39,837 nucleotides of DNA from Escherichia phage pO103, in sequence record OR204651.1. One strand, given 5' to 3'. A program made the position numbers and the translations under genes. How positions within the stretch are numbered: position 1 is the stretch's first letter; every line of letters starts with the position of its first letter. The notes beneath the pieces were generated by a model. That model saw nothing but the letters and a program-made list of their open reading frames with translations, was not told the origin of the DNA and searched no databases. Shown piece after piece: positions 6,090-39,837 of this stretch.

Positions 6090-6112
6090 TAATACGACTC
6101 ACTATTGGGAGC
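6090..6112 (+). promoter_or_regulatory. Phage promoter phi1.1 (TAATACGACTCACTATTGGGAGC); followed by AT-rich region, candidate primary origin
   Basis: 22/23 match to T7 consensus; location equals T7 phi1.1A/B origin region. Confidence 0.85.
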
Positions 6113-22535: not shown

Positions 22536-22558
22536 TAATACGACTCACTATTGGGAGA
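22536..22558 (+). promoter_or_regulatory. Phage promoter phi10 (TAATACGACTCACTATTGGGAGA), with long structured leader before gene 10
   Basis: Consensus match; about 150-nt leader with stem-loops; strong RBS AAGGAGA. Confidence 0.9.
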
Positions 22559-22706: not shown

Positions 22707-23750
22707 ATGGCTAACATGACTGGTGGACAACAGATTGGTAAGGATCAAGGTAAAGGCATGAGCGCTGGCGATAAACTGGCTCTGTTCCTGAAGGTCTTCG
22801 GTGGTGAAGTTCTGACTGCATTTACCCGTACCTCCGTAACTATGAACAAACACCTCGTGCGTTCTATTCAGTCCGGTAAGTCCGCGCAGTTCCCTGTGCT
22901 GGGTCGTACCAAAGCTGCTTATCTGCAACCGGGTGAGAACCTCGATGACAAACGTAAAGACATGAAGCACACTGAGAAGACCATTAACATTGATGGTTTG
23001 CTGACTGCTGACGTTCTGATTTACGACATCGAAGACGCAATGAACCACTATGACGTGCGCTCTGAGTATACTGCTCAGTTGGGCGAGTCTCTGGCTCTGG
23101 CTGCTGATGGCGCGGTACTGGCTGAAATGGCTAAACTGTGTAACCTCCCGGCTGCATCCAATGAGAACATCGCCGGTCTTGGTACTGCAAGTGTACTGGA
23201 AGTAGGCACTGCGGCTGACCTACAAGGTGACCAAGTGAAGCTGGGTCAGGCAATCATTGCACAGTTGACTCTGGCTCGTGCTCGTCTGACTAAGAACTAC
23301 GTGCCGTCTGCTGACCGTACCTTCTACACCACTCCGGATAACTACTCCGCGATTCTGGCCGCTCTGATGCCTAACGCTGCCAACTATCAGGCGCTGATTG
23401 ACCCGTCTACTGGTTCTATCCGCAACGTCATGGGCTTTGAAGTAATCGAAGTTCCTCACCTGACTGCTGGTGGTGCTGGTGATGACCGTCCAGAAGAAGG
23501 CACAAGCCCGTCTGGTCAGAAACACGCATTCCCTGTGACTGCTACGGGTGACACTAAGGTTGCTCTGGATACCGTTGTTGGTCTGTTCTGCCACCGCTCT
23601 GCCGTTGGTACTGTGAAGCTGAAAGACATGGCGCTGGAACGTGCTCGTCGTGCTAACTATCAGGCTGACCAGATTATCGCTAAGTACGCTATGGGTCACG
23701 GTGGTCTGCGTCCAGAAGCAGTAGGTGCACTGGTTTTCAAAAAGGCTTAA
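22707..23750 (+). CDS. 10A: Gene 10A major capsid protein
   Basis: 347 aa; MANMTGGQQ.G start and extensive identity to T7 gp10A. Confidence 0.98.
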   Translation: MANMTGGQQIGKDQGKGMSAGDKLALFLKVFGGEVLTAFTRTSVTMNKHLVRSIQSGKSAQFPVLGRTKAAYLQPGENLDDKRKDMKHTEKTINIDGLLTADVLIYDIEDAMNHYDVRSEYTAQLGESLALAADGAVLAEMAKLCNLPAASNENIAGLGTASVLEVGTAADLQGDQVKLGQAIIAQLTLARARLTKNYVPSADRTFYTTPDNYSAILAALMPNAANYQALIDPSTGSIRNVMGFEVIEVPHLTAGGAGDDRPEEGTSPSGQKHAFPVTATGDTKVALDTVVGLFCHRSAVGTVKLKDMALERARRANYQADQIIAKYAMGHGGLRPEAVGALVFKKA

Positions 23751-23875
23751 CTTCTCGCAAACTCGTAGGGGACAATGAGTCCCTTACTGAAGTTGAGCAA
23801 GAGCTAACGCCACAGCAGAAAGCTGCTCGTACCCGTGCTGCTAACAAGGCGGCAAAACTAGCTGCTGAACAGTAA
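22707..23875 (+). CDS. 10B: Gene 10B minor capsid protein produced by programmed -1 frameshift near 23732-23741
   Basis: The -1 frame is open from the 10A C-terminus for about 46 codons to TAA at 23873-23875; slippery G GTT TTC AAA at the 10A end. Confidence 0.6.
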
Positions 23876-23886
23876 TAACTATATGA

Positions 23887-23928
23887 AACCCCTTGGGTGC
23901 CTTTGCGGGTGCTTGAGGGGTTTTTTTT
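23887..23928 (+). terminator. T-phi-like terminator for phage RNAP (CCCCTTGGGTGCCTTTGCGGGTGCTTGAGGGG + T8)
   Basis: Hairpin plus T-run closely resembling T7 T-phi, directly after gene 10. Confidence 0.85.
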
Positions 23929-23956
23929 CAACTCACTAATGGGAGGACATTTAACT

Positions 23957-24547
23957 ATGCGCTCATATGAAACAACGCTTGAGACAGGCGAAGAGTTGTC
24001 GGCTATCAACGACATCTTGGCCTCTATCGGTGAACCTCCAGTATCAACCCTTGAGGGAGATGCCAACGCAGACGTAGCGAACGCTCGACGTATCCTCAAT
24101 AAGATTAACCGTCAGATTCAATCTAAGGGCTGGACGTTCAACATTGAGGAAGGTCAACAGTTGCTACCTGATGTGTTCAACGGATTGATTCCCTACATGT
24201 CTGACTACTTGGCTGTGTTCTCGGATGGCGGTGCCACTGCCTATGTGAACCGTGGTGGTTACGTGTATGACCGGGACAATCGTACCGATGTCTTTAATGA
24301 ACCTATCACAGTGACAATTATCAAACTGCGAGAGTTCTACGAGATGCCTGAATGCTTCCGATACTGGATTGTCACCAAGGCTGCTCGACAGTTTAACAAC
24401 CGATTCTTTGGAGCACCTGAGATTGATGCTGTCTTAGCTGAAGAGGAACAGGAAGCCAAAATGCAGTGCACCGAATACGAGTTAGACTTCGGTAACTTCA
24501 ACATGCTTGACGGTGATGCCTTCACTGGTGGTCTGCTGTCTCGCTAA
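23957..24547 (+). CDS. 11: Gene 11 tail tubular protein A
   Basis: 196 aa from [39 protein letters not shown]; matches T7 gp11. Confidence 0.95.
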
Positions 24548-39183: not shown

Positions 39184-39270
39184 TAGATAAGTATGCGGGA
39201 AAGGTGCATAGGTAAGCACTTAGTACCGCTACGTTACCGTTAAGTAACTTACTGATATACATGAAGAAAT

Positions 39271-39293
39271 TAATACGACTCACTATTGGGAAT
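39271..39293 (+). promoter_or_regulatory. Phage promoter phiOR (TAATACGACTCACTATTGGGAAT)
   Basis: Consensus match; same +1 to +8 as phiOL. Confidence 0.85.
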
Positions 39294-39451
39294 GGCACCC
39301 TAAGACAACTTAAAGACACTTAAAGACTGCATATGCAAAGTGCATACTTAGTGACTAACTCTAAGAGACCCTTACAGTGAGGGATGATAGTAATTGTAAT
39401 TACATCCCTAACTATCAGTGTAACCATCAAGTATAACAAGGAGGACGCTCT

Positions 39452-39607
39452 ATGCGATTACTATCCGTGCTTAAGACACTAGCAACGCATCGAGTGACCT
39501 ATAAATTTCTCGTTGTACTTGCTGCTTCCATTGGTCTCGCATCTAGTGTTGAACACATCGGTGAACTGGAGACTCTGCTTTGTTCTCTACTCACTTGTGT
39601 TCCTTAG
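39452..39607 (+). CDS. Gene 19.5-like small hydrophobic protein (51 aa)
   Basis: AAGGAGG RBS 7 nt upstream; position downstream of phiOR as T7 19.5. Confidence 0.5.
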   Translation: MRLLSVLKTLATHRVTYKFLVVLAASIGLASSVEHIGELETLLCSLLTCVP

Positions 39608-39635
39608 ACTGCTCATTGGCGCTTAGCGCGCTCTT

Positions 39636-39673
39636 AGTGATTATGGTCGATATACATCTTCCCTATAATCACT
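39636..39673. repeat. Inverted repeat AGTGATTAT ... ATAATCACT (9-bp arms, 20-nt loop) near right end; preceded by palindrome AGCGCGCT
   Basis: Direct reading; right-end location suggests role in concatemer processing or packaging. Confidence 0.5.
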
Positions 39674-39698
39674 GTAAGAAGTCAACTCTAAGAGTAAC

Positions 39699-39786
39699 CC
39701 TTATGTACCCTCTATGGTCTACAGGGTCTCTTAGGGTCTCTCACGTAGTCTCACCTTATGATAGCCACTCTGTGGTTAACCTTATG
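39699..39786. repeat. Right-end CCTTATG heptamer repeats (39699, 39754, 39780) and GGTCTCT direct repeats
   Basis: Same heptamer as left-end array. Confidence 0.6.
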
Positions 39787-39837
39787 AGATACTTGATGTA
39801 CCCCTTTAAGAATCCTACAGAAAAATCTGAGTGGGTA

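Follow-up and report, generated by a model that had tools for sequence, protein, structure and literature searches.

The 39,837-nt genome of Escherichia phage pO103 (OR204651.1), the whole of which is referred to here as the window, was placed in the genus Berlinvirus, among the T7-like Studiervirinae, by comparison with its relatives. Its gene 10 is 99.8% identical to that of Escherichia phage P694 and 88-94% identical to those of BP12A, P483, BA14, Kvp1, and FE44. The T7-like major capsid identity of the gene proposed to host the frameshift was established by matches of the 10A product to the Pfam family Gp10A-like (PF21703, E 7.8e-106), to phrog_267, and to solved T7-like capsid proteins with E-values down to 6e-176 (5e-167 for T7 10A, PDB 2xvr). 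The last codons of 10A read CTG GTT TTC AAA AAG GCT TAA, with the UAA stop at 23748-23750. On the minus strand, a 120-aa TTG-initiated ORF (23737-24099) lies antisense to the 10B tail, the Tphi-type terminator, and the first part of gene 11. As all recognised genes are on the plus strand, this ORF is probably spurious. No direct terminal repeat was detected, as no left-end prefix of at least 20 nt recurred in the last 600 nt (1-600 against 39238-39837). Since T7-like genomes normally carry such a repeat, the pO103 record may be trimmed or permuted. The features around the end of gene 10 are collected in Table 1.

Table 1. Features in and around gene 10 of pO103, with their positions in the window.
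Feature	Position	Strand	Basis
phi10-equivalent promoter for the phage RNA polymerase, ahead of gene 10, TAATACGACTCACTATTGGGAGA	22536..22558	+	Pattern scan
Gene 10A, major capsid protein, 347 aa (0 frame)	22707..23750	+	ORF list; Pfam; annotation of relatives as major capsid protein
Slippery heptamer G_GUU_UUC (T7 type), most likely slip point	23732..23738	+	Sequence; comparison with T7 and relatives
Overlapping second shifty motif C_AAA_AAG (A_AAG preceded by AAA), possible extra slip point	23738..23744	+	Sequence
10B-specific tail, -1 frame, 45 codons + TAA	23738..23875	+	Translation; homology to T7 10B tail; phrog_12582
Two-stem RNA hairpin, candidate 3' stimulator	23745..23798	+	Fold, covariation, RNAalifold, covariance model
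Tphi-type terminator hairpin (18 pairs, G-U rich) + U tract	23885..23928	+	Fold; homology

Beginning at 23684, the -1 frame runs for 63 sense codons before it reaches the TAA at 23873-23875, and it is open across the 10A stop, as the preliminary description had stated. A second TAA follows in frame (23876-23878), forming a tandem stop TAA TAA (23873-23878) that ends the 10B frame. With the coordinates join(22707..23738, 23738..23875), 10B is predicted to comprise 389 aa and 41.3 kDa, compared to 347 aa and 36.8 kDa for 10A. After a slip on GUU_UUC, it would consist of 344 residues common to 10A followed by QKGLTSRKLVGDNESLTEVEQELTPQQKAARTRAANKAAKLAAEQ. The addition of 42 residues given in the preliminary description holds as the net gain but not as the trans-frame count, as 45 trans-frame residues (QKGLTS...LAAEQ) would replace the last three of 10A. 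Likewise, the stretch G GTT TTC AAA AAG is present at 23732-23744 but lies within the last five codons of 10A, not the last six. In the 0 frame, GGTTTTC falls on codons 343-344 of 347, in the same register as in T7 and three codons before the 10A stop. The tryptic peptide predicted across the GUU_UUC junction is PEAVGALVFQK, and the predicted tail peptides are GLTSR and LVGDNESLTEVEQELTPQQK, while the junction predicted for K345, ...VFKKGLTSRKLVGDNE, would be indistinguishable from 10A after trypsin.

Taken alone, neither the open -1 frame nor the heptamer goes beyond chance. The -1 frame stayed open in 16% of shuffles of the 3' region, and a -1 extension of at least 42 codons was found in 10 of the 38 plus-strand ORFs of the window. 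GGTTTTC occurs three times in the window against 4.8 expected occurrences, the other plus-strand copy (15665) being in the wrong register, and G_GUU_UUC is an imperfect X_XXY_YYZ heptamer. The significance of the site derives from the comparison with relatives.

The 10B tail was found to be 49% identical to the T7 10B tail (BLASTP, E 5e-11) and matched phrog_12582, annotated as “head protein” (E 1.9e-15). As no start codon (ATG, GTG, TTG, CTG, or ATH) occurs in the 63-codon open -1 frame, the tail can be produced only by recoding from 10A, and independent initiation is excluded. In 23 distinct tail sequences drawn from the T7, Berlin, and related groups, 13 of the 16 residues of the core LTPxQKAARTRAANKA are invariant. 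Variable nucleotides in this core occur at the third codon position of 16 of 16 codons, at the first of five, and at the second of one, while over the whole tail 28, 23, and 41 of 43 columns vary at the first, second, and third codon positions, respectively. Judged by this comparison, the tail evolves as protein-coding sequence in the -1 frame, under strong purifying selection across genera.

The distribution of the tail was compared in gene 10 ends taken from 80 viral contigs and from reference phages; 73 of these ends were distinct. Extensions were counted as conserved if they were of the TRAANK type or the 80-95 codon type, and a shifty motif was defined as a Z_ZZN tetranucleotide, either U_UUC/U or A_AAG/A, lying in frame within the final ten codons. 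The motif was present in all 44 ends with a conserved extension, whereas a conserved extension was found in none of the 22 ends without the motif, whose valine codon ahead of TTC is typically the synonymous GTC or GTG (Fisher p 6e-13, with no correction for common descent).

Several relatives depart from the common arrangement. L012/L131 (IMGVR_UViG_2700988866_000001) carries a GAG to TAG change in the tail at the equivalent of window position 23795, which truncates 10B 16 codons past the 10A stop and also breaks a U-G pair in the lower stem of the hairpin. It is a natural shortened-tail mutant, and the full-length tail is thus not indispensable. In L009, L021, L023, L079, and L053/L054/L060/L062/L068, the GTT_TTC slip motif leads into unrelated extensions of 85-91 codons, which look Ig-like, as in T3. 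The 10A genes of these loci are closely related, and the base before GTT_TTC is G, except for a C in L021 and L023; here the slip site has been retained and the displayed module swapped, the extensions standing in place of the TRAANK tail. In L043 and L063 (IMGVR_UViG_3300034349_000001 and 3300034127_000003), 10A ends with ...CTG GTT TTT ACT CCG GCA GCG TAA and the -1 frame is open for 471 codons beyond the 10A stop. This may be an unusually long frameshift extension, or the frame may run into the downstream genes by chance.

In pO103, 10B is very probably produced as it is from T7 gene 10, by programmed -1 ribosomal frameshifting with the slip on G_GUU_UUC. Most ribosomes on the capsid mRNA would halt at the UAA at 23748-23750 and release the 347-aa 10A, while a minority would slip by -1 with tRNA-Val and tRNA-Phe on the heptamer, with tRNA-Phe moving from UUC onto UUU and tRNA-Val from GUU onto GGU. 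The slipped ribosomes would read CAA AAA GGC and onward to the tandem stop at 23873, giving the 389-aa 10B as a minor capsid protein with its 45-residue basic C-terminal tail displayed on the head. During the slip, with GUU and UUC in the P and A sites, the two-stem hairpin would sit at the mRNA entrance of the ribosome, and the adjacent AAA_AAG may add some slippage.

In a 2016 review of recoding (PMC5009743), T7 gene 10 is listed in the X_XXY_YYZ heptamer class with X_XX = G_GU (site G_GU U_UUC), and two citing papers give 10B as about a tenth of 10A in T7 virions (PMC5009743, PMC1635266). For Kvp1, a 43.6-kDa virion band was identified as 10B by MALDI MS/MS through 10B-specific residues, with the -1 frameshift at TTTTCA (PMC2579914). 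Sequence comparison identifies the pO103 site as the orthologue of the frameshift site in T7 gene 10. The proposal that a programmed -1 frameshift makes 10B, already put forward in the preliminary description, is supported by this orthology, the tail homology, the coding constraint, the lack of a start codon, and the Kvp1 mass spectrometry. The mechanism is already known, with an orthologous site and protein-level proof in the same genus, and the additions made here are modest. They comprise the join coordinates, a second shifty motif that overlaps the first, and the covarying hairpin, a candidate for a proximal stimulator; the preliminary description had neither singled out AAA_AAG as a slip point of its own nor mentioned the hairpin.

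The heptamer G_GUU_UUC is identical in T7 and in all relatives with a TRAANK-type tail, with the exceptions of BA14 (TTA), L018 (G_GUA_AAG), and three loci with A_GUU_UUC. Alternatively, the main slip point could be the adjacent (C)_AAA_AAG, with tRNA-Lys moving from AAG to AAA, which would yield ...VFKKGLTS instead of ...VFQKGLTS and thus K rather than Q at residue 345. This motif is in frame in pO103, and P-site re-pairing would amount to two of three pairs at both sites. In E. coli, A_AAG is the classic tetranucleotide prone to shifting, and no heptamer is more shifty than A_AAA_AAG (PMC5009743). In BA14 (L001 1333-1345, the equivalent of window 23732-23744), the site reads GGTTTTAAAAAAG; the TTC to TTA change weakens the T7-type site and creates U_UUA_AAA as well as a perfect dnaX-type A_AAA_AAG, and the tail is kept. 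The first base of the lower stem of the hairpin is also altered in BA14, from G to U.

Across the relatives, however, GUU_UUC is nearly invariant while C_AAA_AAG is not conserved. At its place are found AAC AAG (Kvp1), AAA ACG (P483), ACA GCG (A7), AAG ACG, GCG GCG, and others, and the tail is kept without AAA_AAG in these three phages and in all T7-group phages. In addition, the Kvp1 mass spectrometry puts the shift at TTTTCA, and the hairpin begins 6 nt past GGUUUUC but 0 nt past AAA_AAG, outside the norm of 6-9 nt. By conservation and spacing, AAA_AAG is disfavoured and unlikely to be the main slip point, while some contribution to the frameshift alongside G_GUU_UUC is possible. An upstream Shine-Dalgarno-like stimulator was also considered and rejected, as only a weak GUAGGUG is present, which is not conserved among relatives.

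The hairpin has a 10-bp lower stem (23745-23754/23789-23798) that includes the 10A stop and a 9-bp upper stem (23765-23773/23779-23787) with the loop AAUGA, joined by a 10-nt internal loop. Folding of 23739-23802 gave a minimum free energy of -25.3 kcal/mol, with 77% of the ensemble and a z of -4.5 against dinucleotide shuffles. The same two-stem hairpin was obtained from a 196-nt fold and was predicted by RNAalifold, which was not told the structure. In a covariation test on 12 distinct sequences, 99.1% of cells were paired and 9 of the 19 pairs showed changes on both sides, the compensatory changes being seen across four genera and coming from few lineages, namely L015/fPS-86 (Helsettvirus), L036/DU_PP_II, and P483/A7. 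None of 500 shuffles reached the observed pairing and covariation, and shifted registers fell to 32-56% paired. The upper stem in L015/fPS-86 and L036/DU_PP_II is of wholly different sequence, and still a 9-bp stem with a 5-nt loop, while within Berlinvirus the variable positions of the region are those of the spacer and the loop. The covariance model also found the hairpin in Morganella phage MP2, a Minipunavirus (41 bits), with a further C-G to G-C swap in the lower stem and a longer upper stem. A pattern scan of viral contigs for further variants returned mostly chance matches and two new variants.

An analogous fold is predicted for the T7 group, with a lower stem that starts 5 nt past the heptamer and also holds the UAA. 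No covariation was seen in this fold, the sequence variation there being too small, and the covariance model did not recognise the T7-group fold beyond the heptamer.

Stimulator structures on the 3' side typically start 6-9 nt past the heptamer (PMC5009743), and a stable structure was found here at 6 nt. This spacing is held in 12 of the 12 sequences while the sequence of the spacer varies. From structure and spacing, we infer that the conserved hairpin stimulates frameshifting. A passage of PMC1635266 gives less than 1% frameshifting for the bare T7 heptamer against about 10% in its native context, so the 3' context matters. The role proposed for the hairpin fits this difference.

The hairpin could also be real and serve otherwise, as an RNase III-type processing signal, a stability element, or a modulator of 10A termination, which we consider rather improbable. 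Its architecture of two stems around an asymmetric internal loop presumably resembles the T7 RNase III signals, and in the T7 group as in the Berlinvirus group, the lower stem takes in the 10A stop. Covariation proves structure and not function, and the stimulator described for T7, in a passage of PMC5009743, is distal and lies in Tphi. The constant spacing nevertheless argues for a role in frameshifting, no RNase III site is annotated at this position in the records of T7, BA14, or Kvp1, and no Rfam family match was found anywhere in the window.

The hairpin is not mentioned in the genome papers of Kvp1 and AP5, both of which include pseudoknot searches; the primary T7 papers may have considered it. 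As a tentative proposal, with a little less than even chances in our estimate, a proximal hairpin that is unannotated in the examined records and papers would drive the frameshift in Berlinvirus, Helsettvirus, Pectobacterium phage DU_PP_II, and Minipunavirus, with the 10A stop sequestered in its lower stem, and slips on both GUU_UUC and AAA_AAG in pO103 would give two 10B isoforms differing at residue 345. If true, these phages would carry a canonical cassette of heptamer, spacer, and structure, unlike T7 with its unexplained long-range Tphi effect. The covarying hairpin offers a proximal candidate for stimulating this frameshift, the 3' signals of which are still called unexplained in T7.

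Downstream of the tail, a terminator is annotated at the Tphi-equivalent place in BA14, Kvp1, and T7, and the Tphi-like hairpin of pO103 contains CCCC at 23889-23892. For T7, frameshifting is reported to be influenced by the CCCC of Tphi, an effect that PMC5009743 calls unexplained, and by analogy the Tphi region may contribute to frameshifting in pO103. A simple terminator and promoter scan found nothing because the Tphi stem is G-U-rich and the promoters are of the phage type. Promoter phi10 is annotated at the position equivalent to 22536..22558 in BA14 and Kvp1. A second phage-type promoter-like sequence, CAACTCACTAATGGGAGGA, lies at 23929-23950 between the Tphi U tract and gene 11 (ATG 23958), where Kvp1 has an annotated phi11 promoter, and the promoter matches otherwise fall at 6090, 6592, 14533, 18619, 21549, 22536, and 39271. 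The internal loop CUCGCAAA (23754-23761) of the two-stem hairpin is complementary to the Tphi loop UUUGCGGG (23902-23909), with 8 pairs in the window. This long-range pairing was rejected as a coincidence, as it is broken by a C at 23904 in P694, BA14, Kvp1, and BP12A.

The -1 ORF might instead be an unexpressed relic or a chance open frame, with 10A as the sole product. The length of the open frame is not significant alone, the nearest record, P694, has no 10B annotation, and one relative (L012) has a premature stop in the tail. Such a relic or chance frame is very improbable in view of the purifying selection on the -1 translation across genera, the tight tie between conserved extension and shifty motif, the tandem stop that closes the frame, and the 10B demonstrated in the same genus for Kvp1. 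Transcriptional slippage, in which the phage RNA polymerase would insert an additional nucleotide (U in the T4 run, A in the A5 run), would presumably give peptide products identical to those of ribosomal slippage, and homopolymer runs do lie at the site, but runs of 4-5 are far shorter than those known to give productive polymerase slippage. With the covarying RNA structure at the canonical ribosomal spacer distance, the tail kept in relatives with an interrupted A run, and the T7 case treated as ribosomal with tRNA re-pairing logic in a passage of PMC5009743, it is hardly credible.

Existing records treat 10B unevenly. The Kvp1 record has a joined 10B CDS that “results from ribosomal frameshifting”, BP12A notes a “potential frame slippage site”, BA14 is described as “similar to C-terminal tail of gp10B”, and BSP161 and FE44 have 10B or minor capsid entries. 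The tail is entered as a separate small “hypothetical” or “head” gene in L177 171-326 (fPS-86 g033), L178 201-332 (MP2_gp39), L180 237-356 (SRT7 gp12), and AP5 ORF32 (PMC4283147). The finding matters mostly for annotation: in P694 and many relatives, 10B is either left out or its tail appears as a protein of its own, despite the lack of a start codon. As the 10B tail is the surface-exposed handle in T7 phage display, knowledge of the junction and of the regulating RNA is useful for engineering Berlinvirus phages.

Among known frameshift systems, E. coli dnaX shares with pO103 a stable hairpin after a stretch of lysine codons, AAA_AAG, and its exact A_AAA_AAG is found in BA14. In the dnaX cassette, A_AAA_AAG is preceded at about 10 nt by a Shine-Dalgarno sequence and followed at 5-6 nt by a stem-loop, whereas pO103 has C_AAA_AAG, an abutting hairpin with a 0-nt spacer, and no conserved Shine-Dalgarno-like element. 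Gene 10 of T3 and phiYeO3-12 likewise makes a minor capsid protein by a -1 frameshift at the end of a homologous capsid gene. In T3, the shift occurs at C_CCA_AAG (lysine) and adds an 86-residue Ig-like domain, while pO103 has neither: CCA_AAG is absent at the 10A end, and the 45-aa tail is of the helical/basic type with no Ig-like match.

T7 and pO103 both have a Gp10A-like capsid gene with G_GUU_UUC three codons before the 10A stop, a shift in the -1 direction, a homologous tail with the LTPxQKAARTRAANKA core, and a Tphi with CCCC after the tail. The pO103 tail is 8 residues shorter (45 compared to 53 trans-frame codons), and in its first half the two sequences are unrelated. After the heptamer, pO103 has AAA AAG and T7 has AAA GUG, Tphi lies about 150 nt from the slip site compared to more than 200 nt, and the proximal hairpin has covariation support in the pO103 group but none in the T7 group.

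The Kluyvera phage Kvp1, also a Berlinvirus, is 92% identical to pO103 over the gene 10 end stretch. It differs by AAC AAG, without the second shifty motif, and by a tail that is 3 residues longer (...ARKEAELAATE). In the Kvp1 paper, “no typical slippage site” was noted, and attention was drawn to a pseudoknot in the region of the terminator rather than to the proximal hairpin (PMC2579914). The heptamers of Kvp1 and pO103 are identical, the hairpin sequences differ only in the loop, and the tails agree until the last 10 residues.
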